Shown: in pieces, positions 10,958 through 42,813 of the stretch
How positions within the stretch are numbered: the first letter of the stretch is position 1
How the letters are laid out: every line of letters starts with the position of its first letter
Source of the DNA: Candidatus Omnitrophota bacterium
GTDB lineage: Bacteria; Omnitrophota; Gorgyraeia; 2-02-FULL-51-18
Assembly: GCA_022072175.1 (NCBI GenBank)
Contig: JAJVIE010000003.1
Span: 665,840-729,839, forward strand
Reading direction: 5' to 3'
Length of the DNA stretch: 64,000 bases
Made by a program: the position numbers and the translations under genes
Notes under the pieces: generated by a model
Told to the model about the DNA's origin: nothing
What the model saw: the letters and a program-made list of their open reading frames with translations, nothing else
Databases searched by the model: none

Positions 10958-10967
10958 GACAACCTCC

Positions 10968-13183: not shown

Positions 13184-13185
13184 GC

Positions 13186-14516: not shown

Positions 14517-14595
14517 TGGTCGGGGCGAGTGGATTCGAACCACCGATCTCTTGCACCCCAAGCAAGCGCTCTGGACCAAGCTGAGCCACGCCCCG
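14517..14595 (-). tRNA. tRNA-Pro (anticodon GGG), CCA encoded
   Basis: The reverse complement folds as a cloverleaf. Acceptor stem CGGGGCG/CGCCCCG. D-arm GCTCAGCTTGGTCCAGAGC. Anticodon stem-loop CTTGC-TTGGGGT-GCAAG. T-arm GGTGGTTCGAATCCACT. 3' end ACCA. Confidence 0.85.
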
Positions 14596-15664: not shown

Positions 15665-15749
15665 AAGATGTTATGACGCCACCGATGGTTGTGACAAAGT
15701 GGGCTTTAATATAGCAAAGCCTTACAGGAGGGTCAACGCCAAAAACAGC

Positions 15750-16139: not shown

Positions 16140-16230
16140 GGGATACCAGTTATTTAAACATTGAAAGAAGTAGAGCTAAAAAAAATCCCTTCAATAGTTT
16201 ACAGCCGTAAACATGCATGTGCAAGGGGGG

Positions 16231-21845: not shown

Positions 21846-21907
21846 GACCGGTCTCCATAAGGTGTCCAGGCCCACATCCACGAAGGGAAGATTTTAACAG
21901 AATCGAG

Positions 21908-21924
21908 GCCCGTTGGGAACGGGC
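21908..21924 (-). terminator. putative intrinsic terminator hairpin after the M16 peptidase gene
   Basis: GCCCGTT-GGG-AACGGGC is a 7-bp GC-rich stem. On the minus-strand RNA it is followed by CUCGAUUCUGUUAAAAUCUU. It lies in the only sizeable gap (about 89 nt) at the distal end of the recA...M16 gene array. Confidence 0.35.
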
Positions 21925-21934
21925 GTAAACGCCG

Positions 21935-23215
21935 TCAGAGGGACAGCTTGGGGCGGATCTCGGAGGCCAGACGCGAGGCGTCCGGACCCACCAGGGCCAA
22001 TCGGAGCGCCTGTGTCCTGAAAAGCCGCGCCGCGACCCGCTTGAGGTCGTGCGGACGGATGGCTTCGACGCGTCGGCGGATCTGCGCCAGAGTACGGTTG
22101 GACCTCGACGACAGCACGCTCTCCCCCGCCCACAGCATGAGGTTCATCGTGTTCTCCAGCCCCAGGTCGAGCTGGCCGAGGTAGAAATCCTTGGCCCTCC
22201 GCAGCTCGTCCGGTCCCACGTCGGTCGTCGCGATCTTCGACAGCTCCTTGAGCACGACACCGACGGCCTCGGGGGCCTTGCGGCCGTCGACCCCGGCCGA
22301 GATGATGAAAGCGCCCGTCTCGGTGTACCGCCTCACCGAAGAGCCGATATCATAGGCCAATCCCCGCTCTTCGCGCACTTCGTTGAAGAGCCGCGAGGAC
22401 ATATTGCCTCCGAGCACCACATTGAGAAGGTCCAGCGGCAGTTCGTCGGGATGGTCCTTCGGAAGGGCGTGCATGCCGAGGCACAGATGGGTCTGCTCGG
22501 TCTTCTTGTTGAGGCTCCTGACCCTGGAGGTCGCGGCGCTACCGCTGAAAAGCCTGCGCTGGACGCCGGGGGCCGACCGCGGCGGCCGCGCGAAAGCCCT
22601 GAGCACCTCGCGGCTGAGCTGGATCAGGTCGATGTCTCCGGCGGCGCTGACGGTCAAATGCGGCTGTCGATAGTAACGGTCGCGAAAACCCACGATCTGC
22701 TCGCGCGTCATCGCCCCGACGGTCTTCAGCGTGCCGGCGATCGGCCGTCCCAGCGCGTGGCCGTCCCACAACACCTCGCAGAGGATCTCATCGACCAGCT
22801 GGCCCGGCTGGTCCTGGGTCATCTTGATCTCCTCGAGGATCACCGTACGTTCCTTCTCGAGGTCCTCTGTCCGGAGCGTGGCTCCGGTGACCATGTCGGC
22901 CAGGACATCGAAGGTCCCTCTGAAGTGGGCCGCGGTCGTCTTGGCCAGGAAACACGTGTACTCCTCGCCGGTGAACGCGTTGAGGCTCCCGCCCTTGCCC
23001 TCGACGTCCTCCTTGATCTGGTAGGTCGTTCTGCGGTGGGTTCCTTTGAAGACCAGGTGCTCGAGGAAGTGAGAGGCGCCGGAGAGCTCCGGACTTTCGT
23101 CGCGTCCTCCGACGCTGACCCAGATGCCCACTGAGACGGAACGGCGTCCCGGCAAGGGCGCCCACACCAGGCGAACGCCGTTGGGGAGCAGTTTGACGCT
23201 GTATTCCCGCTTCAT
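21935..23215 (-). CDS. M16 family zinc peptidase (insulinase-like)
   Basis: 426 aa. HFLEH inverted zinc-binding motif near the N-terminus, and two M16 domains. Confidence 0.75.
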   Translation of the reverse strand: MKREYSVKLLPNGVRLVWAPLPGRRSVSVGIWVSVGGRDESPELSGASHFLEHLVFKGTHRRTTYQIKEDVEGKGGSLNAFTGEEYTCFLAKTTAAHFRGTFDVLADMVTGATLRTEDLEKERTVILEEIKMTQDQPGQLVDEILCEVLWDGHALGRPIAGTLKTVGAMTREQIVGFRDRYYRQPHLTVSAAGDIDLIQLSREVLRAFARPPRSAPGVQRRLFSGSAATSRVRSLNKKTEQTHLCLGMHALPKDHPDELPLDLLNVVLGGNMSSRLFNEVREERGLAYDIGSSVRRYTETGAFIISAGVDGRKAPEAVGVVLKELSKIATTDVGPDELRRAKDFYLGQLDLGLENTMNLMLWAGESVLSSRSNRTLAQIRRRVEAIRPHDLKRVAARLFRTQALRLALVGPDASRLASEIRPKLSL

Positions 23216-23643
23216 GATGCGCCCGTCGCGCGATGACGCCGCGAGTCCAGATAGCCCTGAAGGATGAGGATGGCCGCCAGCTGATCGCTCTTCTGTTTCT
23301 GCTTCTGCCGAGAGAGGCCCTCCTGGATCATCAGACGCCCCGCCTGCCGGCTGGTGAGACGCTCGTCCCAGGAGGCCACGCCGAGACCCGTCTCACGCGC
23401 CAATCGGTCCATCCACTCACGGGTCAACCGGGCCTTGGGGCCCTCTGTGCCGTCCATATTGACCGGGAGACCGATGACGATCTCCGTCACTCCGCGTTCG
23501 GAGCAGAGGCTCTTCAACGCCGCGACGGTACGGTCCACGCCCTTGTTCTCGAGCGTCTCGAGTCCCTGGGCGGTGTATCCGAGAGGGTCGGAGATCGCCA
23601 GGCCGATCCTTTTGTCGCCCAGATCGATGGCCAGGATCCTCAT
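23212..23643 (-). CDS. ruvX: Holliday junction resolvase-like RNase RuvX/YqgF
   Basis: MRILAIDLGDKRIGLAISD. About 143 aa from the internal ATG that overlaps the manC stop. The 80-aa N-terminal extension of the track ORF was rejected. Confidence 0.85.
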   Translation of the reverse strand: MRILAIDLGDKRIGLAISDPLGYTAQGLETLENKGVDRTVAALKSLCSERGVTEIVIGLPVNMDGTEGPKARLTREWMDRLARETGLGVASWDERLTSRQAGRLMIQEGLSRQKQKQKSDQLAAILILQGYLDSRRHRATGAS

Positions 23644-24659
23644 GAGGCCTGAGCCGCCCAGCGTGCCGCGGATTCGGAGGCGCCTCTTGGACAAACGAGC
23701 ATGCCTTGGTGTGTTCGTACCACGATCGTGTCCTTCAGACCGGACAGACGCGCGCGGCCCGGCAGGGCATCGTGAACAAGGCAGTTCTCGCAATCCTTGA
23801 GCACCGCCCCGCCGATGACCGCGTTGCCCGCGGCATCCTTCGGAGCTTTTTCGTAGTACATGTCCCAACTGCCCATATCGCACCAGTCCATCCGGGTCGA
23901 CAGTACCGTCACGCGGCGCGTTCTCTCCATGAGCGCGTAGTCGATGGAGAGCGCCGGCAATCTCCGATAGGCGGCCCTCAAACGCGCGACGCCCTTGAGG
24001 CGCGTGAACTGCGGAGCGTGCCGCTCCATTTCACCATAGTAGGTGGAGAGCCGCCACGTGAAGATGCCGGCGTTCCATGCGTGCCGGCCGCCTTTGAGAT
24101 AGGCCGCCGCGCGCCGGGAGTCCGGTTTTTCGACGAAACGCCTGACGGTGTGGGCTCCGGCCGTACCGCGGATCGCCTGCCCGCGCTCGATGTAACCATA
24201 GCCGGTGGCGGCGAACGTCGGCCGGATGCCGATCGTGACCAGCGTCCTCGACGATCCGGCCAGACGGATGGCCGCGCGCATCGTGCCGGCGAACGACGCC
24301 GTGTCCTGGATCAGGTGGTCGGCCGGGTAGAAGGAGACGACCTCCTCGCCGCCGCACCTCTGACGCAGGATCTCGCAGGTCAGATGGATCGCCGAGGCCG
24401 TATTGTTGCGGAACGGCTCGATATGCAGATTGCCGGAGCTCAGGGACGTCAGCTCGGCGCGCACATGACGGACATGATCGCGTCCGGTGATGACATGCAC
24501 GCGGGCGGCCCCGTAAACTCGGGCCAGACGGGCGTACGTGGACGACAGCAGGGACGATCGACCGTCGTACCGGATGCGGTATTTGGGGAAATCCGCGGAT
24601 GTCAGCGGCCAGAATCGTTCTCCGATACCGCCGGCCATGATCACTGCCTGGGGCATCAA
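23640..24659 (-). CDS. mannose-1-phosphate guanylyltransferase (nucleotidyltransferase domain, no cupin)
   Basis: 339 aa. AVIMAGGIGERFWPLT sugar-nucleotidyltransferase signature. Confidence 0.7.
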   Translation of the reverse strand: MMPQAVIMAGGIGERFWPLTSADFPKYRIRYDGRSSLLSSTYARLARVYGAARVHVITGRDHVRHVRAELTSLSSGNLHIEPFRNNTASAIHLTCEILRQRCGGEEVVSFYPADHLIQDTASFAGTMRAAIRLAGSSRTLVTIGIRPTFAATGYGYIERGQAIRGTAGAHTVRRFVEKPDSRRAAAYLKGGRHAWNAGIFTWRLSTYYGEMERHAPQFTRLKGVARLRAAYRRLPALSIDYALMERTRRVTVLSTRMDWCDMGSWDMYYEKAPKDAAGNAVIGGAVLKDCENCLVHDALPGRARLSGLKDTIVVRTHQGMLVCPRGASESAARWAAQAS

Positions 24660-25477
24660 TCGCCCCCGGCTTTGACGGACCGGACGGCCCGGACGAACGG
24701 CCGCACCACCCGCCGGGCGAACGCGGAAGCGTCGGACAGGCCGGTCCTGGACAGCTCTCGGACGATCGCGCTGCCGACGATCACACCATCGCTGTACGCG
24801 CAGAAGCGGCGCGCCGCCTCGGGTGTCGAGACACCGAAACCCACGCAGACCGGAAGCTCGCTTCCCCTGCGCGCGCGGCGCACATGCGACTCGATGACGC
24901 GCGAACTGTCCTTGGCGTCCGCTCCGGTGACGCCGGTCAAGGAAACGTAATAGACAAAACCTTTGGAGCGTCTGAGCACCAGGCGTTCACGCTCGCCGGA
25001 GCTGGTCGGGGCCAGCAGGTAGACGGTATGCAGTCCGCGCCGGGCCAGCACACGGTCGATCTCCCCGCCCTCATCTGGAGGCACGTCCGGCAGGATCACC
25101 CCATCGACACCCGCACGGGCAGCGTCAGCGGCGAATCGCCGGATACCGTAACGGAGGATGGGGTTGGCGTAGCTCATGAGCAGGATGGGCAGGCGCACGC
25201 CGCTCCGTCGCGCCTGGCCGACCATGTCCAGCACACGCCGCACGGTCACGCCGTTCTTGAGGGCCGTCAGCGAGGAGGCCTGGATGACGGGCCCGTCCGC
25301 CAGAGGGTCGGAGAACGGCACCCCGATCTCCAGCAGATCCACACCCTCACGCTCGAGCGCGACCGCCAGGCGGACGGTGCTCGTGAGCGTCGGATGTCCC
25401 GCGGTGATGAAGGCGATCATGGCTTTCTGCCGCCGCTCACGCAGCGCGGCGAACGTCCGGTCGATGCGGTTGGTCAT
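24656..25477 (-). CDS. trpA: tryptophan synthase alpha chain
   Basis: 273 aa. TrpA family. [18 protein letters not shown]. Confidence 0.9.
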
Positions 25478-26682
25478 AAGGCCAGCACCTTGGAGACCTG
25501 CTCGACGTCCTTGTCGCCGCGTCCGGACAGGCAGATCAGGAGCGTATCCGTCCTGCGGAAGCGGCGCTTGTTCTTGAGCAGATAGCCGATCGCGTGCGCC
25601 GGCTCGAGCGCCGGAATGATCCCTTCGAGTCGGCTCAGGGCCTGGAGCCCTTCGAGCGCTTCTTTGTCCGTGGCCGAGACGTACTCCGCCCGACCCCTGC
25701 TCTTGAGATAAGCGTGTTCGGGACCGACACCCGGATAATCCAAGCCCGCCGAGATGGAGTGGGCCAACTGGATCTGGCCGTCAGCGTCCTGGAGCACTTC
25801 GGTCCGGCTGCCGTGAAGCACGCCGATCCGGCCGGCGGTGAGCGTCGCCGCGTGCTGGCCCGAGGAGACGCCGTGCCCGGCCGCCTCGACGCCGATCAGG
25901 CGCGCGCGGCTGGCGAGGAACGGATGGAACAGCCCCATGCTGTTGGAGCCGCCCCCCACGCACGCCACCGCGTAGTCAGGGTCCCGCCCGACGGCAACCC
26001 GGAACTGCCTGCGCGCCTCCTGACCGATCACGGCCTGGAAATCCCTGACCAGCCGCGGGTACGGATGAGGCCCGATGACGGAGCCGATGATGTAGTGCGT
26101 GTCGCGCACGTTGGTGACCCAATCCCGGATGGCCTCGTTGACGGCGTCCTTGAGCGTCCGCGAACCCGAGCGGACCGGGTTGACCTTGGCGCCCAGGAGT
26201 TTCATACGAAAGACGTTGAGGGACTGGCGGTGGACATCCTCCTCCCCCATATAGACCTCACAGCGGATCCCCAGAAGCGCGCACACCGTCGCGGTGGCCA
26301 CGCCGTGCTGCCCGGCCCCCGTCTCCGCGATGACGCGTTTTTTGCCCATCCGAAGCGTCAGTAGGGATTGACCGATGGTGTTGTTGATCTTGTGCGAGCC
26401 GGTATGATTGAGGTCCTCGCGCTTCAGGAAAGCACGGCGAACCCCGAGCGCCTTGGCCAGACGCTTGACCTCGGTCAACGCCGTCGGCCGGCCGGCATAA
26501 TGGTGGAGCCGCTGCATGAACTCCCTGCGGAAAGACGGGTCCCTGGAGGCCTTGGCGTACTCGCGCTCCAGCTCGGCGAGCGCGCCCATGAGCGTCTCGG
26601 GCACATAACGGCCGCCGTAGGGGCCGAAATGCCCGTGGCGGTCGGGTTGACTATGGAAGCGTTCGGTAGGCTTTTTGGGCAT
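25474..26682 (-). CDS. trpB: tryptophan synthase beta chain
   Basis: 402 aa. [14 protein letters not shown] and HTGSHKINN (PLP lysine). Confidence 0.92.
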
Positions 26683-27283
26683 TGGTGATGAACCTTTTCA
26701 TCGCGACAGGGTCCTTGATGCCGGGGGCGGTTTCGACCCGGCTGGAAGCCTCGACGCCGTACGGACGCAGCCGGCGGACCGCCTCGGCGACGTTGCCGGC
26801 ATGCAGTCCTCCCGCCAGGATCACCGGCGTCGTTCGCGGCACACCACGGAGCAGGCTCAGATCGAACGTCCGGCCCGTCCCGCCGTCGGACCCGCGAACC
26901 TCGGTATCGAACAGCCATGCCCCGGCCCGGTGGCGCCTCAGGGCGGCGACCGCGAACCCCGGTCCGACACGAAAGGCCTTGATCGTCAGAAGGTTTCCGA
27001 GGATCCGCTCGTATCCGGGTCGCTCCGACCCGTGCAGTTGGACGGCCGTCAGACCCGCTTCATCAGCGATAGCCCGGATCTCGCGTGCCGGCGTATCGAC
27101 AAAAACCCCCACGAGCGCGGGCCACGGACCCACCGCCCGCCGGATGCGTCGGGCCTGCGCCGGCGTAACGCGGCGCTTGCTGCCGGCGGCGAAGACCAGC
27201 CCGACCGCCGTCGCGCCACAGCGGAACGCCAGCTCAGCGTCCTGCTGACGGGTCACACCGCAGATCTTCACGTAACCGCTCAT
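26651..27283 (-). CDS. trpF: phosphoribosylanthranilate isomerase
   Basis: 210 aa. VKICGVT TIM-barrel N-terminus of the TrpF family. Confidence 0.85.
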
Positions 27284-28068
27284 GTGCGCCCCAGGAGTTT
27301 GGCGACGCCCGCGCCGGGATCGGCTTCCCGCATGAACGCTTCGCCCACGAGAACGGCCTTGGCTCCGAGAGCTTTCAAGTATAACAAATCACCATGGGAC
27401 TGTATGCCACTTTCGGAGACCAGCAACCGCTTGTCGTCGACGAGCGGCGCCAATCTCTCCGTCGTGCGAAGGTCCACCGAGAACGTCTGCAGGTCGCGGT
27501 TGTTCACTCCGATGATCCTCGCTCCGACAGCCAGGGCTTTCTGCACATCCTCGTAGCTGTGGGTCTCCACCAGGGCGTCCAGACCGTAGCGTCCGGCCAG
27601 TTCGTACAGCGTCTTGAGCTCTTCGGCCGAGAGCGCCCCGGCGATCAGGAGCAGGGCGTCGGCGCCCATCGCCACCGTCTCGTACACTTGCACTTCGTGG
27701 ATGATGAAATCCTTGCGCAGCACCGGCAGAGCGACCTCGGCCTTGACCGAGCGCAGATAGTCGGCGCTGCCGCCGAAGTAGATCACGTCCGTGAGCACCG
27801 ACAGCGCCGCGGCCCCGCCCTTTTCGAAGGATCGGGCCAGGGAGACCGGGTCGAAATCCGCCCTCAGGAGCCCCTTGGACGGCGAGCGGCGTTTGATCTC
27901 TGCGATGACGGCCATCGGTTCGGGCGCTTCGCGGAGAGCCCGCTCGAAGACGCCCGCGTTCGCGTGGCGGAGCCGCTCGGCCTCGGAACGCCAGGCCGCC
28001 AGGGGCTTGGCCGCCAGCGTCTCCTGGACCTCCTTGCGTTTCTCCATCAGGATCTCCCGGAGGATCAC
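27280..28068 (-). CDS. trpC: indole-3-glycerol phosphate synthase
   Basis: 262 aa. IAEIKRRSPSKG and the IGPS family profile. Confidence 0.88.
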   Translation of the reverse strand: MILREILMEKRKEVQETLAAKPLAAWRSEAERLRHANAGVFERALREAPEPMAVIAEIKRRSPSKGLLRADFDPVSLARSFEKGGAAALSVLTDVIYFGGSADYLRSVKAEVALPVLRKDFIIHEVQVYETVAMGADALLLIAGALSAEELKTLYELAGRYGLDALVETHSYEDVQKALAVGARIIGVNNRDLQTFSVDLRTTERLAPLVDDKRLLVSESGIQSHGDLLYLKALGAKAVLVGEAFMREADPGAGVAKLLGRT

Positions 28069-29081
28069 GCGGCGCTCCCGTAGTAGTCACGCACCTGCTG
28101 GAGCTTGTTCAGGCCGCCCCCGTTCCGCTGGACCGCCACGATCCGCCGGTAACCCTCGGCGATGGACGGCGCCAGACCCGCGGCGCGCAGGCCCGCGCCG
28201 GCGTTCAGGCAGACGATGTCCGAGGCGGGACCCGAAGCGCCCCCGAGGATGTCGAGAGCCAGACGCGAGGCATCCTCGGCATCGGCCACCCTGAGCACAT
28301 CGAGCGGCACCCGACGGATGCCGACATCTTCGGGCTCCAGACGTCCCTCTCGGATCTGCCCGCCCGACAATTCGGCATAGACGCTGGGGGCGGAGATGCT
28401 GATCTCGTCCAGGCCATCCTCGCCGTGCACGATGAGCGCGGAGACACAGCCGAGCTCCTTGAGCGCTTCGGCGAACGCCCGGACCAGCGGACGGGAATAC
28501 ACGCCCAGGAGGTGATGTCCCGCTCCGGTGGGATTGGACAGCGGTCCGATCAGGTTGAAGACCGTCTTGCCGCCGACCCGCTTGCGTGCGGCCATGGCGT
28601 GTTTGACGGCGGGGTGGTACAGCGGCGCGAACAGGAACCCCCAACCGACCTCGGCGATACCCCTTTCGATCTTCTGGGCGCCGGCGTCCATCGGCACACC
28701 CAGGGCCTCCAGAAGATCCGCGCTGCCGCAGACCCCCGACACCGAACGGTTGCCGTGCTTGGCGACGCGGGCGCCGGCGGCCGCGCACAGGAACGATGCG
28801 ATCGTCGAGACGTTGAGCGTCCGGGAGGCATCGCCTCCGGTACCGCACGTATCGAGCCATTCCGGATGATCGGAGGCGGTCCGGACGCCGTGCTCGCGCA
28901 GCACCCTCGCGGCCGCGACGATCTCTCCGACCGACTCTCCTTTCTGACGCAACAGCACCAGCAGGTCGGCGATGTCGGACTCCTGGGCCTGACCGCTCAT
29001 GATGGCGCGCATGGCGTCGGTCATCTCGGAGGAAGCCAGATCACGTCCGGCGCGGAGGAGTTCGACGGCGGGCAGGGTCAC
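28065..29081 (-). CDS. trpD: anthranilate phosphoribosyltransferase
   Basis: 338 aa. DTCGTGGD and HGNRS motifs. Confidence 0.9.
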   Translation of the reverse strand: MTLPAVELLRAGRDLASSEMTDAMRAIMSGQAQESDIADLLVLLRQKGESVGEIVAAARVLREHGVRTASDHPEWLDTCGTGGDASRTLNVSTIASFLCAAAGARVAKHGNRSVSGVCGSADLLEALGVPMDAGAQKIERGIAEVGWGFLFAPLYHPAVKHAMAARKRVGGKTVFNLIGPLSNPTGAGHHLLGVYSRPLVRAFAEALKELGCVSALIVHGEDGLDEISISAPSVYAELSGGQIREGRLEPEDVGIRRVPLDVLRVADAEDASRLALDILGGASGPASDIVCLNAGAGLRAAGLAPSIAEGYRRIVAVQRNGGGLNKLQQVRDYYGSAA

Positions 29082-29647
29082 CGGGTGAGCTCGAGAAAAT
29101 TACGGAGGATGCGTTTCCCGCATCCGGTAAGGATGGACTCGGGATGGAACTGCACTCCGTAGACCGGGTACCGGCGGTGCCGAAGCCCCATGATCTCCCC
29201 CCGGTCGGTCCAGGCGGTCACCGCCAGGTCCTTGGGCAACGAACGGCGTTCGACCAGCAGTGAATGGTAGCGCGTCGCCGTGAACGGCTGATCAAGACCC
29301 TTGAAGATCCCCTTGCCGTCATGATGGATCTCGGATGTCTTGCCGTGCATCAACCGGTCCGCGCGCACGACCCGGCCGCCGTAGACCTGCCCGATGCACT
29401 GGTGCCCGAGGCAGACGCCCAGCACGGGGATGCGCGGCCCGAGCTCACGGATGATGTCGTTGGAGATCCCGGCCTCGTCCGGATTTCCGGGACCCGGAGA
29501 GATGACGATCCGGGCGGGCTTGAGCTTGCGGACACCCGCGAGATCGACGCGGTCGTTACGGACCACCTTGAGGGTCTGCCCCATCTCACCCAGGTACTGC
29601 ACGAGGTTGTAGGTGAACGAATCGTAATTGTCGATCATCAGGATCAT
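29078..29647 (-). CDS. trpG: anthranilate synthase component II (glutamine amidotransferase)
   Basis: MILMIDNYDSFTYNLVQYL and GVCLGHQ (catalytic Cys). Start placed at the ATG overlapping the trpE stop (ATGA). The 198-aa Arg/Gly-rich read-through in the track ORF was rejected. Confidence 0.88.
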   Translation of the reverse strand: MILMIDNYDSFTYNLVQYLGEMGQTLKVVRNDRVDLAGVRKLKPARIVISPGPGNPDEAGISNDIIRELGPRIPVLGVCLGHQCIGQVYGGRVVRADRLMHGKTSEIHHDGKGIFKGLDQPFTATRYHSLLVERRSLPKDLAVTAWTDRGEIMGLRHRRYPVYGVQFHPESILTGCGKRILRNFLELTR

Positions 29648-31146: not shown

Positions 31147-31149
31147 GGA

Positions 31150-31545
31150 TCAGTAGACTTTCTTGGGATCGAACACGAGCGGGTCCGTCACTTCGCGCGA
31201 AGCATCGTCCTTGATGCGTTCGAAGTAACAGCTGAAATAACCCTTGTGGCATCCGGCGACGTTCTGGTCGATCACGAACAGCAACGACTTGCCCTCGCAG
31301 TCCGGCCTGAACTCCCGCACCGCCTGCGTGTGTCCGGAGGTCTCGCCTTTTTTCATCAGCTTGTTCTGCGAGCGGCGGAACAGGTGGATGTACCCCGTCT
31401 CGAGCGTCGCTCGGAGCGAGATCTCGTTCATGTAGCAGAGCGTCAGCACCTGCTTGGTCTTGCGGTCCTGGATGATGGAGGGGATGAGCCCCTGAGCGTC
31501 GAACTTGAGCGAGCTTTTGATCTGTTCGAAGATGGCGTCGTTCAT
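31150..31545 (-). CDS. hisI: phosphoribosyl-AMP cyclohydrolase (HisI domain only)
   Basis: 131 aa. HisI family profile, with no fused HisE domain. Confidence 0.85.
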
Positions 31546-32300
31546 GACCTGACCGTGATCCCTTTCTGCTTCAGATAGCGTTTGACCTGCCCGACCGTGA
31601 ACTGACGATAATGAAAGATGCTGGCCGCCAGCACCGCGTCGGCCTTGCCGCGGGTCAGTCCGGCCGCCAGATGCGAGAGCTCACCGGCCCCTCCGGAGGC
31701 GATGACCGGCACGCGTACGGCCGAGGACACCCTGCGGAGCAGCTCAAGATCATAGCCGTTCTTGGTGCCATCGCGGTCCATGCTCGTCAGCAGGATCTCC
31801 CCCGCCCCGAGCTTCTCGCAGCGCCTGGCCCACCGGACCGCGTCCAGACCGGTCGCCGTGCGTCCCCCGTGCGTGAAGACCTCCCACCTGCGGGACCCCG
31901 TGCGCTTGGCATCGATGGCGACCACCACGCACTGGGCTCCGAACCTCCTCGAGGCCTTGCGGATGAGCTCGGGATCCTTGACGCCGGCGGTGTTGATGGA
32001 GACCTTGTCGGCCCCGGCCGCCAGGAGCGTGCGGATGTCCTCGATGGAAGAGACACCGCCGCCGACCGTCAGGGGGATGAACACCTGCTCGGCCGTACGG
32101 CGCACGACATCAAGGATGATCTTGCGCTTCTCATGCGAAGCGGTGATGTCCAGGAACACCAGCTCGTCCGCTCCGGCCCGATCATAAAAAAGCGCGCACT
32201 GCACCGGATCTCCCGCATCGCGCAGACCCACGAAGTTGGTCCCCTTGACCACTCGCCCGTCCTTCACATCTAAACAGGGGATCACGCGCTTGGCAAGCAT
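31542..32300 (-). CDS. hisF: imidazole glycerol phosphate synthase, cyclase subunit
   Basis: 252 aa. [20 protein letters not shown]. Confidence 0.92.
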
Positions 32301-33013
32301 GTTCTCACCGCGTCCGCGACGCTGAACTTCTTCTCGTACAAGGCTTTACCGATGATGGCGCCGAGCAGATTGGGCTTGCGCAGCGCTTCGAGCGCCCGGA
32401 GATCGTCCAGGCTCGAGACGCCTCCTGAGGCGATCACCCCGATGCCGCCGAGATCGAGCATCGTGCCGAGCTCCTTGAGGTTCGGCCCGGTCAGGGCTCC
32501 ATCCCGGTCGATGTCGGTGTAGATGATCGTCCGTCCTCCAAGGGACGACACGGACTCCGCCAGGCCCCTGGCCCGCAGTTCCGTGACCTTCCTCCAGCCG
32601 TCCGTGGCGACCTGACCGCGCACCGCGTCGATACCGATGATCGCGCGCTCACCGAACTCCCGCAAGGCCTCTTTCAGGAAACCGGGGTCCAGACAGGCTT
32701 GAGTGCCGAAGATCACCCAGCGCACTCCGGCTTCGAGCGCCCGGTGCGCGCTCCCGAGGTCCCTCAGACCTCCGCCGAGCTCCACGGGCACCTTGACCCG
32801 ACGCAGGATCGCCCTAACAGCGTCCATGTTGGCCTGAGCTCCGTCGCGCGCGCCGTCGAGGTCGACGACATGCAATCGCCGCGCGCCCTGTTCCTCGAAG
32901 ACGGCGGCCACATCGGCCGGGGCGTCCGCATAGACCGTTTCGCGGTCGAAATCGCCCTTGAACAACCGAACGGCCTTGCCTCCGCGCAGATCGATCGCCG
33001 GGATCGGGATCAT
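32282..33013 (-). CDS. hisA: ProFAR isomerase
   Basis: 243 aa. [17 protein letters not shown]. Confidence 0.9.
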
Positions 33014-33615
33014 GAGACGGTCCTCACGAAATTACGCAACAGACGCAAGCCCTGCGACTGGCTCTTCTCCGGATGGAACTGCGTCGCCCAGATGGAGCCG
33101 CTCTCGACGGCCGCGCAGATCCGCGTGCCGTAGAAGGTCGTCGCCGCCAGACAGCCGGGATCCTCGGGGACCGCGTAGTACGAATGCACGAAGTAGTAGT
33201 ACGTTCCGTCCTTGATGCCCGACAGCAGCTTGGGTCGACCGCTCCGCTGGATGTCGTTCCAGCCCATATGCGGGACCTTGAGGCGGCCGCGGAAGCGCAC
33301 GACGCGGCCCTTGAGCAGTCCCAGGCCCCTGACACCCGGCGACTCTTCGCTCGACTCGAACAGCAACTGCAGTCCGAGGCAGAGACCGAGATAAGGCGTG
33401 CCGCTGCGGACCGCATCGCGGACGGACGCGTGCAGGCCCCTGCGGCGCAGTTCGCTGACAGCGTCCCCGTAGGCGCCGACACCAGGCAGCACGATCGCGC
33501 GGGCCCGGGTCAGCCCCGCCGCCGAATCGACGCGGCGCACCCGCGCGCCGGCCTCTTCGAGGGCTTTCTCCACACTGCGGAGATTGCCCATTCCATAATC
33601 GATCAGAGCGATCAC
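33010..33615 (-). CDS. hisH: imidazole glycerol phosphate synthase, glutaminase subunit
   Basis: 201 aa. MIALIDYGMGNLRSV, and GLCLGLQ catalytic Cys. Confidence 0.9.
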   Translation of the reverse strand: MIALIDYGMGNLRSVEKALEEAGARVRRVDSAAGLTRARAIVLPGVGAYGDAVSELRRRGLHASVRDAVRSGTPYLGLCLGLQLLFESSEESPGVRGLGLLKGRVVRFRGRLKVPHMGWNDIQRSGRPKLLSGIKDGTYYYFVHSYYAVPEDPGCLAATTFYGTRICAAVESGSIWATQFHPEKSQSQGLRLLRNFVRTVS

Positions 33616-34253
33616 AGACGGCCTTTGGTCGAAGGGATCCCGCGCGTGCGGGCATCCGGCGTGACGGCCTGATCGAGCGCGCGGGCCAGGGCCTTGAACG
33701 TCGCCTCGATGACGTGATGCGGGTACTCTCCGGCGATCAGCTCGACGTGCAGTGTCGCGCCCATGTTGGCCGCCAAGGATTCCAGGAAATGCTTGGCGTC
33801 GGCCAGGGTGTAGTTCATCGCATTGGGCTTGGACCGCACGGCCGGATGCTCGACCCAGCGCGTTTTCGCCCGTGTGTGGAGATGGAACGAGCCCCTACCG
33901 CTCAAGTCCAGGCTCACCCGCGCTTCGGCGAGAGCCTCATCGAGCGGCGCGCGAAAGTCCCCGAACCTCCGGATGCCGGCCTTATCGCCGAGGGCCTGGC
34001 GGAAAGCCGTGCCGAGAGCGATGCCGACGTCCTCGTTGGTGTGGTGCGTGTCCACCTGCAGGTCACCTGTGGCCGTCAGTCGGATGTCGAAGCGTCCATG
34101 CTTGGCCATCGACTCGATCATGTGGTCCAAAAATGCGATGCCCGTCCGGACCCGCGAGCGTCCGGTGCCGTCCACCGACAGTTCGACGCGGATCGAGGTC
34201 TCTTTGGTGCGCCGGAGAAGTTTGGCGCTTCTTTTCGTGCGAGCCGACTTCAT
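33612..34253 (-). CDS. hisB: imidazoleglycerol-phosphate dehydratase
   Basis: 213 aa. RRTKETSIRVELSVDG, and the IGPD family profile. Confidence 0.88.
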   Translation of the reverse strand: MKSARTKRSAKLLRRTKETSIRVELSVDGTGRSRVRTGIAFLDHMIESMAKHGRFDIRLTATGDLQVDTHHTNEDVGIALGTAFRQALGDKAGIRRFGDFRAPLDEALAEARVSLDLSGRGSFHLHTRAKTRWVEHPAVRSKPNAMNYTLADAKHFLESLAANMGATLHVELIAGEYPHHVIEATFKALARALDQAVTPDARTRGIPSTKGRL

Positions 34254-35488
34254 TTGTGCACCGCCTTTTCGAAACGGATCCGGACCGACTCCATGTGACG
34301 CGGCAGGCCCTCGAGCGTGGCCAGGTGTTCGACGGCGCCTTTGACCCGCTCGAGCGCCTTGCGGCTATAGGAGATCACGTGCGAGCTCTTCAGGAAGTCG
34401 TGCACGCTGATCCCCGAGAAGAACCGCGCAGTCCCATTGGTCGGCAGGACGTGGCTCGGGCCCGCGACATAGTCGCCCACGGCCGTCGGCGTGTAGGGCC
34501 CGATGAAGATCGCGCCGGCGTGACGGATGTCCGGCAGGACGCGCTTGGGGTTGCGGACCATGATCTGCAGGTGTTCAGGGGCGATCTGGTTGACGATCTC
34601 AGCGCCCTGCTTGAGACTGGGCACCGCGACGATGTAACCTTTGATCTGCACGCGGCTGATGAGCCGCGCCAGGCGCTTGGAGGTGGTCACAAGGATAGAG
34701 GTCCCGTTGTGGTGCTCGGCCTGCGCGTGCAAGTCGGCGATCACGAAATCCGGGTCCGCCTCATCGTCCGCCAGCACGACGACCTCGCTGGGACCGGCGA
34801 CCATGTCGATGTCGCAGTAGCCGAACACTTGGCGCTTGGCCTCGGCGACGTAGGCGTTGCCGGGACCCACGATCTTGTCCACCCGGGGGATGGACCGTGT
34901 GCCGAAAGCCAGCGCGCCGATCGCCTGCGCCCCTCCCGCCTTGAAGACCCCGTCCACCTTGAGCAGGTTGGCCACCACCAGGATATGGGGGTCGACGCTC
35001 TTGTACTTGTTGGGCGGCGTGATCAGATAGACCTTCTTCACCCCGGCGAGCTTGGCCGGCAGCACCGTCATGTACACGGACGACGGCAGGGGCACCGTAC
35101 CCGAAGGGATGTAGATGCCGACGGACTCCAGCGGCCGAATCCGCTCCCCCAGCTCCACACCCTCTTCACGCACCGTCCTCCAGGAGCGCTTGACCTGTTT
35201 GCGGTAGAACTGATTGACGTTCTCCACCGCGACCTTGAGCGAGGCGATGAAATCCGGTCCGATGTTCTGATAGGCCCCGTTGATCTCGCTCTCGGTGGCG
35301 CGCAGCTCCTTGGGCGTCAGCCGCACCTTGTCGAAGCGGCGCGTGTAGCGGAGCACCGCGTCGTCCCCGCCGCTCTTGACGTCCTCAAGGATGCGGCGCA
35401 CGGTCTCCTCCACGCGGCGGTTACGCGTGGCGTTGCGTTGGAAGAGCTTCTGGAACTTCTGGCTCGAGGGCTTGACGATCTGCATCAA
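34250..35488 (-). CDS. hisD: histidinol dehydrogenase
   Basis: 412 aa. HisD family profile. Its start overlaps the alaS stop by 4 bp. Confidence 0.9.
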   Translation of the reverse strand: MMQIVKPSSQKFQKLFQRNATRNRRVEETVRRILEDVKSGGDDAVLRYTRRFDKVRLTPKELRATESEINGAYQNIGPDFIASLKVAVENVNQFYRKQVKRSWRTVREEGVELGERIRPLESVGIYIPSGTVPLPSSVYMTVLPAKLAGVKKVYLITPPNKYKSVDPHILVVANLLKVDGVFKAGGAQAIGALAFGTRSIPRVDKIVGPGNAYVAEAKRQVFGYCDIDMVAGPSEVVVLADDEADPDFVIADLHAQAEHHNGTSILVTTSKRLARLISRVQIKGYIVAVPSLKQGAEIVNQIAPEHLQIMVRNPKRVLPDIRHAGAIFIGPYTPTAVGDYVAGPSHVLPTNGTARFFSGISVHDFLKSSHVISYSRKALERVKGAVEHLATLEGLPRHMESVRIRFEKAVHK

Positions 35489-38067
35489 TTCTTCTCCGTG
35501 AGCGTGCGCCGCGCCAACTGTGCCGCGAGGCCCAGCGCTTCGGCGGCGCGCGAAATTTCCTTGGACCCCCCGGTCGCGAAGTCGGGCTTGCCCCCGCCGG
35601 ACCCGCCGATGGCCTTGGCGATCTCCTTCACCGTGTTGCCGCAGTGAAATCCCTTCTTGACCGCCTCGGACCCGGCCGAGAGCGTGAACGAGAACTTGTC
35701 CTCGAACACCGAAACCACGGCCGCCACATGAGAGGCGTCGGACTTACGAAGCGCCTCAAGCTCGCGCCGGATGAGCTCGGGGTCGGCGTTGTTGAAGCTC
35801 AACTCCAGACAGCGGACCCCCGCGAAACTGCTTGCCCCTCCCAATCCCTCGGTCAATCTCTGGCGGACCCGGCTCTGCGCCTGTCCGGACAGACGGTCGC
35901 GCAGGCTCCTGAGCCGCTCGACCTCCATACGGATCCGCCCGACGGTCTGTTCGGGGCTCGGGGACGAGAACTCCCGCTGGAGTTCCTTGAGCTCGGCCCG
36001 GGCCGCTTCCAGCATCGCGTCGGCGGCGCGTCCGGTGACGGCCTCGATCCGGCGCACGCCCGCCTGGATGGAGCTCTCGGAGGTGATCCTGAAAGACCCG
36101 ATCTGCCCGGTCTCGCGCAAGTGCGTGCCACCGCAAAGCTCCTTCGAAAAATCCCCGATGGTCACGACGCGGACCGTGTCGCCGTACTTCTCGCCGAAGA
36201 ACGCGATGGCACCCTCCTTGATCGCATCGTCCTTGGAGAGCTCGCGCTTGTCGAGCGGGGTGTTCTTGGAGATCTCGGTGTTGACGAGCGTCTCGATCTC
36301 CGCGATCTTGTCCGGACCCACGGCCTGGAAGTGGGTGAAGTCGAAACGCAGGTGGTCCGCCGCCACCAACGATCCGGATTGCTTGACGTGATCGCCGAGC
36401 GCGCGGCGCAGAGCCGCGTGCAACAGGTGCGTGGCGGTATGGTTCTTCATGATGTCGGCGCGGCGGACCGCGTCGACAGCCAACGCGTACGTTGTGCCGG
36501 GCCTGAAGGCGCCTTGTTTGACGACGACCTTGTGCGCGATGCAGTGGTCCATCTTCTGCGTGTCCAGGACATCGGCTTCGGCCCCTGCCCCGGCGATCCG
36601 TCCGGCATCGCCGATCTGGCCGCCGGACTCCGCGTAGAACGGAGACTTGTCGAACAACAGCACGCCCTCCTCGCCAGCCTTGAGCTCGGGGACGATGGCG
36701 TCGCCCTTGACGGCGCGAAGCAGGTTCGCCCGGGGCTCCTCGGTCGCATCGTAACCCAGGAAGCGCGTGGGACCCAGGCCGTCGATCAAGTGATAGAAAC
36801 CCTTGGAGAAGATCTCCCCGGCGATCTTCGAGGATTCGCGCGAGCGCTTCTTCTGCTCCGACAGCAACGCCTCGAACCGCTCGGGATCGAGCGTGACGCC
36901 GACCGTCTGAGCGGCCTCCTGGATCAACTCGAACGGCAATCCGTGCGTATCGTAGAACTTGAACGCCGTCGCGGCCGGGTCCTTGGACGCCGGTAGCTCC
37001 GACTTGAGCGCGGGCACCCGAGTGCGGATGATCTCCCAGAACGCCCTCTCCTCGTTCTCGATGATGCCCGTGATCGTCTTCTGACGCTCGGAGATCTCCG
37101 GGTAGACCCCGCCGTACACATCGACCACCGCCGGGATCAGCTTGTGGAAGACCCCGCTGTCGACGGCACCCGCCTTCTGCAGATGGTCGCTGGCCAGGCG
37201 GATGATCTTGCGGATCACATAACCGCGGCCTTCATTGGACGGCAGCGCGCCGTCGGCGATGGAGAACACGGCCGCTCGGATGTGGTCGAGCACCGCGTTC
37301 TCGCGCGCCCGCTCCTTGCCCGGCGTCTTGAGCAAGCGGTGGAGCTCCGCGCGCAGGCGCACGAAGTTATCGGTGTCAAAATTGGACTCCACACCCTGGA
37401 TGACCGCGGCGCAGCGCTCAAGACCCATGCCGGTGTCGATATTGGGCTGGGGCAGCGGCGGCAGGGACCCATCGGACTGGCGGTTGTAGCCGGTGAAGAC
37501 GAGGTTCCAGATCTCCACGCCCTTGCCAGGCACTTCACCCACGTAGATCTCCGAGCAGGGGCCGCACGGACCGTTAGGGCCGTCCTTGGGCGCGTTGGAA
37601 GGCCAGAAGTTGTCCTCAGCGCCCATGCGGACGATGCGCGCCTCGGGCACGCCCATCTTCTTCTTCCAGATGTCGAACGCTTCCTGGTCCTCCTCGTAGA
37701 CGGAGACCCAGAGCTTGTCCTTGGGGAGGCCGAGCTCGCGCGTAACGAACTCCCACCCCATCTCGATGGCGCCTTCTTTGAAATAGTCGCCGAAAGAGAA
37801 GTTACCGAGCATCTCGAAGAAGCTGTGGTGATAATTGGTCTTGCCGACACGATCGAGGTCGGCGGTGCGCAGGCATTTCTGACAGCTGGTGGCCCGTTTG
37901 ACGTCCTTCTTGAGCCCGAGGAAATACGGCTTGAACTGGTTCATGCCAGCGCCCGTGAAGAGCAGCGACGGATCGTCCGCCGGCACGAGCGAGTCGCTGG
38001 GGAACAGGCGGTGGGCCTTCCGTTCGAAGAATTGCAGGTAGGTCTTACGAAGTTCGTCGGTCTTCAT
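35485..38067 (-). CDS. alaS: alanine--tRNA ligase
   Basis: 860 aa. Class II aaRS core (FTGAGMNQFKP), editing domain (HTATHLLHAALR), and a C-terminal DHHA1-like region. Confidence 0.95.
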   Translation of the reverse strand: MKTDELRKTYLQFFERKAHRLFPSDSLVPADDPSLLFTGAGMNQFKPYFLGLKKDVKRATSCQKCLRTADLDRVGKTNYHHSFFEMLGNFSFGDYFKEGAIEMGWEFVTRELGLPKDKLWVSVYEEDQEAFDIWKKKMGVPEARIVRMGAEDNFWPSNAPKDGPNGPCGPCSEIYVGEVPGKGVEIWNLVFTGYNRQSDGSLPPLPQPNIDTGMGLERCAAVIQGVESNFDTDNFVRLRAELHRLLKTPGKERARENAVLDHIRAAVFSIADGALPSNEGRGYVIRKIIRLASDHLQKAGAVDSGVFHKLIPAVVDVYGGVYPEISERQKTITGIIENEERAFWEIIRTRVPALKSELPASKDPAATAFKFYDTHGLPFELIQEAAQTVGVTLDPERFEALLSEQKKRSRESSKIAGEIFSKGFYHLIDGLGPTRFLGYDATEEPRANLLRAVKGDAIVPELKAGEEGVLLFDKSPFYAESGGQIGDAGRIAGAGAEADVLDTQKMDHCIAHKVVVKQGAFRPGTTYALAVDAVRRADIMKNHTATHLLHAALRRALGDHVKQSGSLVAADHLRFDFTHFQAVGPDKIAEIETLVNTEISKNTPLDKRELSKDDAIKEGAIAFFGEKYGDTVRVVTIGDFSKELCGGTHLRETGQIGSFRITSESSIQAGVRRIEAVTGRAADAMLEAARAELKELQREFSSPSPEQTVGRIRMEVERLRSLRDRLSGQAQSRVRQRLTEGLGGASSFAGVRCLELSFNNADPELIRRELEALRKSDASHVAAVVSVFEDKFSFTLSAGSEAVKKGFHCGNTVKEIAKAIGGSGGGKPDFATGGSKEISRAAEALGLAAQLARRTLTEKN

Positions 38068-38082
38068 GTGGCGGCGTTCCCG

Positions 38083-38604
38083 TCACTCCACTTTGAGGTG
38101 CTTGTCGAACAACTTGAAGATCAAACCTTCCCCGAACCCCCTGCGGCGCAGGAGGCCGTACAGGCGCGCCCTGCGCTTGTCCGCCGCAAGACCCGGCATC
38201 TTGGCCAGCCGCCGGAGCAGGAGCGTCTCGGCCGCCGACAGTTCGTCCTCGGGACTCAACCCCGACATCGCTTCGGACACCGTGCGCTCGGCGAACCCGC
38301 GCCGGCGGAGCTCCTGGGCGATCCTCACGCGGCCGAGACCCGCCGAAGCGGCCTTGGCCGAAGCCATCATGCGCGCCACCCGACCGTCGTCGACCAGACC
38401 GGCCGAGGCCAGCTTGTCCACGGCCGCTTCGGCGGTCGCGCGGTCATGGCCTTTATCCGCCAGTCGCTTCAACAGCTCCGCGCGGCTCCTGGGCCGGTAC
38501 GAGAGGAGGCGCAGGGCGTCGCTCTGCGCTCGGACCGACGGATCCTCCGAAACGGCAAGCCCGGCCTTGTCGCGGCCGGGCTTGGGACGCTGTCGGAACG
38601 TCAA
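38083..38604 (-). CDS. recX: recombination regulator RecX
   Basis: 173 aa. RecX family repeats ([19 protein letters not shown]). It overlaps recA by 4 bp. Confidence 0.85.
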
Positions 38605-39647
38605 GCGGCGGTGACGGCGGTGGACTTATCGAGGATCTTCTTCTCGATCTCCGCCAGGACCTTAGGATTCTCGCGCAGGTACGCCTTGGCGTTCTCGCGA
38701 CCCTGACCCAGTCGCTCGTCCCCGTAGAGGATCCAGCTACCGCTCGCCTTGGTGATCTCGTAGGTCTCCGCCATGTCCAGCACGCTGCCGAGGAACGAGA
38801 CGCCCTCGTCGTACATCAGGTCGAACTCCGCTTGCTTGAAGGGCGGCGCGACCTTGTTCTTGACGACCTTCACGCGTACGCGGCCGCCGACGTTCTCCTC
38901 GCCACGCTTGATCTGCGCGATACGCCGGATGTCGAGACGGACGGACGAGTAGAATTTCAGCGCCCTGCCGCCCGGGGTCGTTTCCGGGTTGCCGTACATG
39001 ACACCGATCTTCTCGCGCAGCTGGTTGATGAACACCAGGCAAGACTTGGACTTGGAGATGACCGCCGTCAGCTTGCGCAGCGCATGGCTCATGAGCCGGG
39101 CCTGCAGACCCACGTGCGAGTCGCCCATATCGCCCTCGATCTCGGCCTTGGGCACCAGGGCCGCCACCGAGTCGACGACGATCAGATCGACCGCGTTGGA
39201 GCGCACGAGCATCTCAGTGATCTCCAGCGCCTGCTCTCCGGTGTCCGGCTGGGAGATGAGGAGCTCATCGAGGTTCACCCCGAGCTTCTTGGCGTACGCG
39301 GAGTCGAAGGCATGCTCCGCGTCGATAAAGGCGGCGGTGCCCTTCTGCTTCTGGGCCTGCGCGATGATGCTCAAGGTCAGGGTGGTCTTGCCGCTCGACT
39401 CGGGTCCGTAGATCTCCACGATGCGACCGCGCGGGATACCGCCCACGCCCAACGCGATGTCCAGCGACATCGCGCCCGTCGGAATGACGGACACGTCCGC
39501 CTTGACGTTCTGGCCCAGGGTCATGATGGACCCTTTGCCGAACTGCTTCTCGATCTGCGATACGGCCGCATCGAGTGCCCGGCGCTTTTCGGCCAGGATC
39601 AGCTTCGGGTCGGGCCTGTCTTCTTTGCGCTCCTTGATCTTCGACAT
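38601..39647 (-). CDS. recA: recombinase RecA
   Basis: 348 aa. GPESSGKTT Walker A and the canonical RecA profile. Confidence 0.97.
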
Positions 39648-39725: not shown

Positions 39726-39754
39726 ATTATACCCCCCGTCCGAGGGGGTGTAAA
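39726..39754 (-). promoter_or_regulatory. putative recA promoter: TTTACA-17-TATAAT on the minus strand, with a G/C palindrome filling the spacer
   Basis: Minus strand reads TTTACA (39749-39754), a 17-nt spacer, then TATAAT (39726-39731). The spacer contains the inverted repeat CCCCCC-GTCCGA-GGGGG (39732-39748). This gives an about 80-nt 5' UTR holding the GTGAACAGGTTAC element and a CCTCTG-CTC-CAGAGG hairpin. Confidence 0.4.
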
Positions 39755-39815
39755 GCCTCCGCGCCATCCTATAAGTCGTCGTGGGGGCTCGATTTCGTTC
39801 ACTTCGGGACCGGGA

Positions 39816-42788: not shown

Positions 42789-42813
42789 GGTCCGGGGATC
42801 CCGCGCGGACCGC

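Follow-up and report, generated by a model that had tools for sequence, protein, structure and literature searches.

How are the histidine and tryptophan genes of a bacterium expressed, and what could control them, when they are packed end to end between recA-recX-alaS on one side and ruvX on the other? This question is raised by a gene array in a 64,000-nucleotide (nt) stretch of a Candidatus Omnitrophota genome (assembly GCA_022072175.1, contig JAJVIE010000003.1, positions 665,840 to 729,839), which we call the window and whose own numbering is used throughout. The array takes up 17.7 kb of the minus strand, from the recA start at 39647 to the stop codon of an M16 peptidase gene at 21935, and holds 19 intact open reading frames (ORFs) in the order recA-recX-alaS-hisDBHAFI-trpEGDCFBA-manC-like-ruvX-M16. 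Judging from the layout of its junctions and from comparison with related genomes, we lean towards the view that it is a lineage-conserved superoperon of a streamlined genome.

Organisation of the array

Translations of the ORFs were matched against Pfam and NCBIfam profiles, RNA elements were searched with Rfam, and the starts were listed junction by junction; as an independent check of the gene coordinates we used Logan gene calls on identical contigs, which agree with the junction coordinates in the window. All 19 ORFs have a full-length Pfam or NCBIfam match to a named family. Plus-strand ORFs across the array show neither a coding pattern of GC content at third codon positions nor a Pfam match, and there is no opposite-strand gene inside the array. 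The genes are as follows, in order of transcription, with the spacing to the preceding gene in nt (negative when the two overlap) and lengths in amino acids (aa):

38601..39647, minus strand: recA, 348 aa; PF00154 (1e-141) and RecA_C; GGAGG 12 nt upstream of the ATG.
38083..38604, minus strand: recX, 173 aa; TTG start, -4 on the recA stop, start uncertain; RecX_HTH1/2/3, with the NCBIfam RecX models matching below their cut-offs.
35485..38067, minus strand: alaS, 860 aa; 15 nt past the recX stop; tRNA-synt_2c (2e-161), tRNA_SAD, DHHA1.
34250..35485, minus strand: hisD, 411 aa; the ATG shares 1 nt with the alaS stop (TGATG), also -1 in the Logan calls, an alternative TTG giving -4; Histidinol_dh (6e-150), TIGR00069 above cut-off.
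33612..34253, minus strand: hisB, 213 aa; imidazoleglycerol-phosphate dehydratase only; -4; PF00475.
33010..33615, minus strand: hisH, 201 aa; GTG start; -4; GATase.
32282..33013, minus strand: hisA, 243 aa; -4; His_biosynth (PF00977, 3e-71).
31542..32300, minus strand: hisF, 252 aa; -19; His_biosynth (1e-86).
31150..31545, minus strand: hisI, 131 aa; PRA-CH only, no HisE domain; -4; PF01502; monofunctional model NF000768 at 124.7 bits against a cut-off of 126.
29644..31146, minus strand: trpE, 500 aa; +3; Chorismate_bind, Anth_synt_I_N; LLES and NPSPYM motifs in the translation.
29078..29647, minus strand: trpG, 189 aa; -4; GATase (7e-61).
28065..29081, minus strand: trpD, 338 aa; GTG start; -4; Glycos_transf_3.
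27280..28068, minus strand: trpC, 262 aa; GTG start; -4; IGPS (3e-84).
26651..27283, minus strand: trpF, 210 aa; -4; PRAI (PF00697, 2e-42).
25474..26682, minus strand: trpB, 402 aa; -32; PALP.
24656..25477, minus strand: trpA, 273 aa; -4; Trp_syntA (4e-83).
23640..24656, minus strand: manC-like nucleotidyltransferase gene, 338 aa, no isomerase domain; -1; NTP_transferase; matches the N-terminal part of TIGR01479, below cut-off.
23212..23643, minus strand: ruvX/yqgF, 143 aa; -4; PF03652 (1e-43), TIGR00250 above cut-off; product identical to MCG3176100.1.
21935..23215, minus strand: M16 peptidase gene, the last of the array, 426 aa; HFLEH motif; -4; Peptidase_M16, M16_C.

Overlaps are found at 16 of the 18 junctions, and the remaining two are gaps of 3 nt (hisI/trpE) and 15 nt (recX/alaS). 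Twelve junctions are 4-nt overlaps of the ATGA, GTGA or TTGA type and two, alaS/hisD and trpA/manC, are 1-nt overlaps (TGATG), which brings the -1 and -4 classes to 14 of 18; longer overlaps occur at hisA/hisF (-19) and trpF/trpB (-32). A first-pass annotation, made by reading the letters of the window, had counted 22 genes here, where the sequence holds 19 – the number to which its own gene list also sums. Its account of the junctions agrees with our measurements: no gap exceeds 15 nt, most junctions are 4-bp stop/start overlaps, hisD begins on the stop codon of alaS, and the trpE start lies 3 nt past the end of hisI.

Recognisable ribosome binding sites are scarce, a core Shine-Dalgarno-like 4-mer lying at most 18 nt upstream of the start in only 6 of the 19 genes, and the 20 nt inspected upstream of trpE, three nt past the hisI stop, contain no such motif. 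At recX the TTG overlapping the recA stop is the only canonical start available, the next one coming not before +128, and use of this TTG would place a hairpin found just 3' of recA (see below) within the recX ORF.

Conservation of the array among Omnitrophota

With HisI as the seed, a scan covering one genome for each GTDB species gave 53 loci (cited below by L numbers), and the proteins of the window were then compared by tblastn. The full gene order is present in every long-enough locus of about 20 Omnitrophota species, at protein identities of 45–89%; several of these relatives carry the automatic label 'uncultured Planctomycetia'. Planctomycetota/Brocadiia loci, which supplied the next-best HisI matches, lack the array, and the RuvX homologues listed (at least 120) are all at least 57% identical and apparently of the same lineage. 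Four deep relatives (L025, L027, L031 and L032, with AlaS at 44–55% identity) retain the order apart from minor changes: three of them have no recX, L031 has no M16 gene, and L025 has an insert of ~2.3 kb between trpB and trpA. Many junctions of L025 have opened to ~90–160 nt, with the order still retained.

The junctions themselves recur as well. The alaS/hisD overlap is -4 in 16 of 20 loci, and in almost all loci hisI/trpE lies between -1 and +8, trpA/manC between -1 and +3, and manC/ruvX at -4 or +1; most relatives have hisA/hisF at -19 and trpF/trpB at -14 to -23. At the same time, the flanks of the array vary, with cinA or pgpA upstream and rpe, an M50-like gene or some other gene downstream, while the interior is constant. 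The M50-like gene (site-2-protease-like, from a RIFGI..VH motif) directly follows M16 in place of rpe in L004, L006, L011, L012, L013 and L022. Flanks that change around a retained interior show that the array is old and has been held together better than its surroundings. That the order is kept at AlaS identities as low as ~45% speaks against a recent insertion of his and trp. The first-pass annotation had proposed a comparison with related genomes; order and key junctions do recur, in about 24 species-level genomes.

Promoter-like sites at the ends of the array

We searched for promoters with the consensus hexamers TTGACA/TATAAT and later with TTTACA/TATAAT, scoring matches out of 12, in the 20 kb around the array and then in the whole window. 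The coding strand of the 20-kb region has only two promoter-like sites, one upstream of recA (39754-39726, 11/12) and a weak one in the gap between M16 and rpe. These sites and the elements next to them are:

39726..39754, minus strand: sigma-70-type promoter TTTACA-N17-TATAAT, ~79 nt upstream of the recA ATG; 11/12 to TTGACA/TATAAT and 12/12 to TTTACA/TATAAT.
39775..39800, minus strand: two-box motif (T)GAAC-N18-CG(T/A)C, ~45 nt upstream of the recA -35; box spacing fixed, spacer sequence variable; in the window and ~12 relatives (L003-L022).
39852..41111, plus strand: cinA, divergent from recA and the upstream boundary of the array; MoCF_biosynth, CinA_KH and CinA domains.
21891..21924, minus strand: element in the M16-rpe gap, a 7-bp hairpin (21908-21924) with no U-tract, overlapped by a weak promoter-like TTCCCA-N17-TAAAAT with an upstream TG (21919-21891).

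The recA promoter site lies within the 204-nt divergent intergenic region between cinA and recA, and an identical TTTACA-N17-TATAAT stands upstream of recA in 13 other relatives with GC contents from 45% to 62%; L025 has the variant TTGACA-N18-TATAAT. Internal promoters were to be looked for, according to the first-pass annotation; across 27 loci spanning 45% to 67% GC, no promoter-like site inside the array that scores 10/12 or more is conserved in position, leaving the one near-perfect sigma-70-type promoter upstream of recA. A candidate trpE promoter inside hisI (TGnTAwwwT, in 42% of loci) was rejected: the pattern represents the TGY-TAT-TTT codons of a conserved Cys-Tyr-Phe in HisI, and the window does not have it.

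In the window as a whole, only five sites reach 10/12 or better, all on the minus (coding) strand and all in the few real gaps, where they precede tRNA-Pro(CGG), rpsO, recA, gpsA and groES. Three of the five are perfect TTTACA-N17-TATAAT matches (at recA, at rpsO, 50407-50379, and at tRNA-Pro(CGG), 59565-59537), against ~2e-4 expected from base composition. So small a number of sites predicts a handful of very long transcription units.

The two-box motif occurs in the form (T)GAAC-N18-CGTC(T) at the same position in L003-L022. Within the window, GAACG-N17-CGWC is found at chance level, and what speaks for the motif is solely its conservation across genomes. We tentatively read it as a second promoter of the extracytoplasmic function (ECF) sigma type, or else as another protein-binding site or operator, or as part of the divergent cinA promoter. 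No LexA box was identified, and any SOS link of the array would be hypothetical.

At the other end, the M16-rpe gap measures 53 nt, with rpe-pgm-lepA-lepB-pgsA-plsY following on the same strand. Its hairpin has a predicted energy of -16.9 kcal/mol (z = -3.1), and extended -10-like sequences (TGnTAnnnT) or TATAnT occur in the corresponding gap behind M16 in L015, L021 and L031.

Elsewhere in the window, a minus-strand gene at 60177-60776 shares 4 nt with the end of nadX and, judging solely by its translation, encodes an ECF-type sigma factor. Next comes a putative membrane anti-sigma-like ORF (59538-60134, minus strand), and the gap between the two contains a second GAACG-N17-CGAC match (60178-60153).

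A hairpin that probably sets recA apart from the downstream genes

Comparison with the relatives drew our attention to the 3' flank of recA, where the window has the following element:

38556..38584, minus strand: recA-3' hairpin, 16 nt past the recA stop; perfect GC-rich stem of 11 bp, 7-nt loop, poor U-tract; in the 5' end of the recX ORF.

No other hairpin of the 64-kb window has a perfect stem as long as this one (-35.1 kcal/mol, z = -5.08, exceeded by 0 of 200 shuffles), and among the long-stemmed hairpins it alone stands just past a stop codon. A pattern scan for terminators, which gave 11 matches in the array against 9.6 expected and none at junctions, missed it because it has no T-run. 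The tail that follows it, CCGUUUCGGA, contains 3 T in 10 nt, short of the U-tract of an intrinsic terminator. The first-pass annotation had taken the hairpin at 21908-21924 to be the first plausible terminator; the far stronger one at 38556-38584 comes before it, and at the very site where the relatives have their terminators.

Alignment of the 3' flanks revealed that in 13 of 18 relatives recA is directly followed by a canonical intrinsic terminator, made up of a long GC-rich hairpin and a T-rich tail. Most relatives have a recA-recX spacing of 54–91 nt, and the recX ATG usually stands right behind the T-run of the terminator. L003 has lost the terminator, and its recX overlaps recA; the window has both a GC-rich hairpin immediately 3' of recA and a co-directional recX. 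In L027, L031 and L032, which have no recX, a canonical recA terminator is immediately followed by TTTTTGATATAAT, an extended -10, upstream of alaS, an arrangement that suggests an ancestral state of two units.

Taken together, the hairpin and the terminators at its site probably set recA apart from the 18 downstream genes, at a differing level of expression. It is therefore doubtful that recA and the other 18 genes are expressed together at a uniform level.

Absence of leaders and the control of the two pathways

Is there any place in the array for control by histidine or tryptophan? The space before hisD and before trpE is -1 and +3 nt. Rfam searches, at gathering thresholds and at E ≤ 1, found no T-box, riboswitch, His leader or Trp leader in the array, the only families in the window being two tRNAs, and no element was found in seven relatives. 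A scan of the array for leader peptides found no leader ORF and no runs of His codons, runs of Trp codons occurring only off-frame, and a regular-expression search of the whole array for TRAP sites found no run of six or more (G/U)AG repeats spaced 2–3 nt. The first-pass annotation had argued that attenuator leaders have no room here, and the empty searches for leaders, riboswitches and TRAP sites bear this out.

The histidine genes do not make up a complete hisGDCBHAFIE set. hisG, hisC, hisE and hisN are absent from the array, and none was seen among the other ORFs of the window, most of which were named by reading their translations without a family search; the terminal aminotransferase in the window is DapL-like, not HisC. 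A preprint describes 176 Omnitrophota genomes as having the whole of the Trp, His and Arg pathways (bioRxiv 10.64898/2026.06.07.730766), and hisG, hisC and hisE are therefore presumably located elsewhere in the genome.

With no room for leaders and no conserved internal promoter, amino-acid-specific transcriptional control is therefore unlikely, and His and Trp synthesis are probably controlled at the enzyme level. The LLES and NPSPYM motifs of TrpE make up the tryptophan feedback site in the enterobacterial enzyme. The first-pass annotation had left a choice between post-transcriptional regulation, internal promoters and regulation at the protein level; the enzyme level is a reasonable choice among these, and no conserved internal promoter-like site was found.

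How the array may be expressed

In the reading that we favour, transcription most likely starts at the strong TTTACA-N17-TATAAT promoter site of the cinA/recA divergent region, and a second, ECF-like promoter may sit just upstream of it. recA would come first, followed by the conserved stem-loop – a canonical terminator in most relatives, here deprived of its U-tract and lying inside the recX frame – which most likely lowers or buffers downstream expression, much like the leaky terminator between recA and recX in E. coli. The other 18 genes would be read as one long mRNA, with translation chained through the 1- or 4-nt stop/start overlaps by termination-reinitiation. Amino-acid-responsive transcriptional control would be lacking, and flux would presumably be set at the enzyme level, by TrpE with its LLES/NPSPYM motifs and by a feedback-regulated HisG encoded elsewhere. 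The array would arise from the way in which the lineage packs most of its housekeeping genes into very long, co-directional, promoter-poor units, and overlap-coupled junctions are hard to break, so that gene order would become frozen. Gene content, junctions, conservation, the sequences of promoter and hairpin and the lack of known leaders are observations; what we infer from them is that the array yields one transcript, that the hairpin is read through, that translation is coupled and that regulation acts on the enzymes. The unusual co-expression without leaders to which the first-pass annotation had pointed is a reasonable reading, except that it is a lineage-wide trait in a genome built so throughout, and that recA is set apart by its hairpin.

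A wider claim can be put forward tentatively, as possible and still rather doubtful: in a large part of Omnitrophota, his and trp would no longer have any pathway-specific transcriptional control and would be wired, through conserved stop/start overlaps, into a recombination/translation unit of ~18 kb. Only two things would determine the output of this unit: the pair of recA promoters (the housekeeping one and, possibly, an ECF stress promoter) and the recA-3' hairpin or terminator, which would be tunable and is found at differing stages of decay from lineage to lineage (canonical, reduced to a hairpin in recX, or lost).

Several points weigh against a single unit. Consensus scans are blind to weak, alternative-sigma or non-sigma-70 promoters. 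The recA terminator of the relatives looks efficient, with a long GC stem and 6–8 T, and the genes downstream may need a promoter that went unrecognised. In the deep clade of L027, L031 and L032, alaS has its own extended -10, TGATATAAT, right behind the recA terminator. The recX start, and hence the -4 junction between recA and recX, is uncertain, and an mRNA of 17 kb would be exposed to Rho and to decay.

Some of these points could be turned into a different reading, in which recA, with or without recX, is essentially monocistronic and bounded by its terminator, while alaS-his-trp-manC-ruvX-M16 is transcribed mainly from its own unrecognised promoter in recX or in the 3' end of recA; recA would then lie next to the amino-acid genes without any functional co-expression with them. 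The hairpin and T-run terminators of 13 of the 18 relatives fit such a division, as do the deep clade without recX, where TTTTTGATATAAT follows the terminator immediately upstream of alaS, and the hairpin that the window has kept (z = -5.1). We nevertheless consider it unlikely, though it deserves to be taken seriously: recX and the 3' end of recA contain no promoter-like site of 9–10/12 or better in the window or in the shallow clade, the recX ATG of the shallow clade sits directly behind the T-run and leaves no room for a promoter, and the window has a degraded U-tract and a hairpin that falls inside an ORF starting on the recA stop, with L003 having gone further, its terminator gone and its recX overlapping recA. 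It is also conceivable that conventional his and trp operons are hidden in the array, with internal promoters and Rho-dependent or other terminators inside coding sequence (for example in the 3' ends of alaS or hisI), so that the packing reflects compaction only. The enterobacterial his operon does have promoters inside coding regions (reviewed in PMC10138114), and weak or alternative-sigma promoters would escape a consensus scan. Such hidden operons are distinctly improbable, since no position-conserved site of at least 10/12 was found in the array in the 27 loci, the extended -10 enrichment before trpE is due to the HisI Cys-Tyr-Phe codons and absent from the window, terminator-like matches are at chance (11 against 9.6), and the conserved coupling of alaS to hisD and of hisI to trpE would be pointless if separate mRNAs began there.

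Finally, the order could be a neutral frozen accident, kept because small genomes rearrange rarely and overlapping genes cannot be split harmlessly, with co-expression lacking selective meaning. Similar mixed arrays do make up the whole window, and overlaps would make breakpoints deleterious; at the same time, the flanks rearrange in the very genomes in which 17–19 internal genes stay in order, and L025 kept the order after its junctions had opened to ~90–160 nt. As a full account this has, in our estimate, only a slight chance of being right, and it overlaps with the superoperon reading without excluding it.

The array in its genomic context

Of the ~66 genes in the window, cinA is the only one on the plus strand. 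Beyond the array, too, about half of the junctions can overlap, and there are other mixed arrays, such as hom-thrC-apgM-ask-cimA-valS-nadC and uvrB-birA-coaX; the array is the densest example of a genome-wide style and not an isolated anomaly.

The first of these, at 5477-14499 (minus strand), is a second tightly coupled mixed array. Its apgM-like gene also matches TIGR02535, 'proposed homoserine kinase', which fits its place between thrC and ask. The hom start lies ~18 nt past a tRNA-Pro gene at 14517-14595; this and a second tRNA-Pro gene at 59449-59526 (both minus strand, anticodons GGG and CGG) are embedded in co-directional runs of protein genes. Two paralogues of a CDP-alcohol phosphatidyltransferase gene (pgsA-like; 16836-17444 and 42222-42881, minus strand) belong to separate tight arrays, the second being followed by pgpA. 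The 3' ends of cinA (plus strand) and of a class-I glutamine amidotransferase gene (minus strand) converge with a 10-nt overlap (41102-41111), and there is therefore no room for a terminator between them. The C-terminal end of PNPase (47784-47900, minus strand) is a low-complexity tail of DRG/GRG repeats. The sole sizeable region of doubtful coding is 15665-16230, with a 129-aa ORF (15750-16139) lacking a Pfam match; it lies within the part of lowest GC (0.61-0.62 over 14–18 kb), just upstream of the promoter-like site of gpsA.

Long operons of unrelated genes are usually short-lived; here 17–19 genes keep overlapping junctions at AlaS identities of ~45–60%. If the single transcript is real, the array would be a natural system for asking how far translational coupling can chain, how a leaky terminator steps expression down within an operon, and how amino acids are supplied without attenuators, T-boxes or repressors in streamlined, possibly host-dependent nanobacteria. 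Should the hard-wired reading be true, two costly amino-acid pathways would run as constitutive passengers of a DNA-repair promoter. On the practical side, TTTACA-N17-TATAAT can serve as a promoter consensus for Omnitrophota, and the array as a synteny marker of the lineage. Mixed operons driven by compaction are already known, and the array is an extreme and conserved example, of moderate interest chiefly because it is so long and so well conserved and because the decay of the recA terminator can be seen in its evolution.

Comparison with known systems

A search of the literature did not find a description of this array, and none of the systems compared below combines all of its elements or matches its density of coupling. 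The nearest match for its beginning is E. coli, where the order pncC(cinA-like)-recA-recX-alaS is the same (NC_000913; csrA follows). As in E. coli, a hairpin stands directly 3' of recA, and recX comes next. The E. coli recA terminator is leaky, with read-through into recX. Unlike the array, E. coli has cinA/pncC co-directional with recA, gaps of 68 and 127 nt, and an alaS with its own autoregulated promoter (the product is annotated as ligase/repressor); the corresponding spacings in the array are -4 and +15 nt, and 16 further genes follow alaS unbroken.

As in the array, alaS and ruvX (yqgF/yrrK) of Firmicutes and Actinobacteria share a conserved neighbourhood in which they are co-directional and which also includes mltG; in B. 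subtilis alaS is adjacent to the ruvX region. In the array, alaS and ruvX are separated by 14 genes (six his, seven trp and the manC-like gene), and ruvX is followed by M16 or rpe, not by mltG. That his and trp sit inside a recA-recX-alaS-...-ruvX neighbourhood was already seen in the first-pass annotation, and both sets do lie between alaS and ruvX. In B. subtilis yrrK is BSU27390 and yrrL is BSU27370, with ruvX/yrrK in a conserved neighbourhood (PMC3814617).

In Actinomycetota, his and trp genes share genomic context around priA (PMC13055916). There, unlike in the array, the dual-substrate PriA replaces HisA and TrpF, trpG and trpD are elsewhere, and unrelated genes and gaps interrupt the order. 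M. tuberculosis, for example, has hisD...hisI and then trpE...trpCBA in Rv1599-Rv1613. The array has separate hisA and trpF genes and a contiguous, full trpEGDCFBA, with hisI and trpE three nt apart.

The term 'supraoperon' has been used for the aromatic unit of Bacillus subtilis (PMC1173090). Like the array, it has a complete trp operon inside a larger co-directional unit, so placed that transcription from a promoter further upstream can reach it. The genes around trp in Bacillus belong to the aromatic pathway (aro/hisC/tyrA), and trp is controlled by a promoter and a leader of its own and by TRAP. The genes that flank trp in the array are functionally unrelated, and there is neither a leader nor a TRAP site. 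A whole-pathway trpEGDCFBA operon was reportedly proposed as ancestral by Xie et al. in 2003. The array shares with such an operon the contiguous trpE-G-D-C-F-B-A order and its translational overlaps; its trp segment differs in being internal to a longer array and in having no promoter, operator or leader of its own.

As for the junctions, termination-reinitiation at -1 and -4 gene pairs has been established by experiment, and overlapping co-directional pairs account for ~15% in most groups of prokaryotes and for ~30% in the group with the highest share (Huber et al. 2019, PMC6728339). The junctions of the array resemble the pairs of that study in being ATGA/GTGA/TTGA (-4) and TGATG (-1), often without a strong Shine-Dalgarno sequence. 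What sets the array apart from the genomes surveyed there is the proportion, 16 of 18 junctions overlapping as against ~15% typically and ~30% at the extreme.

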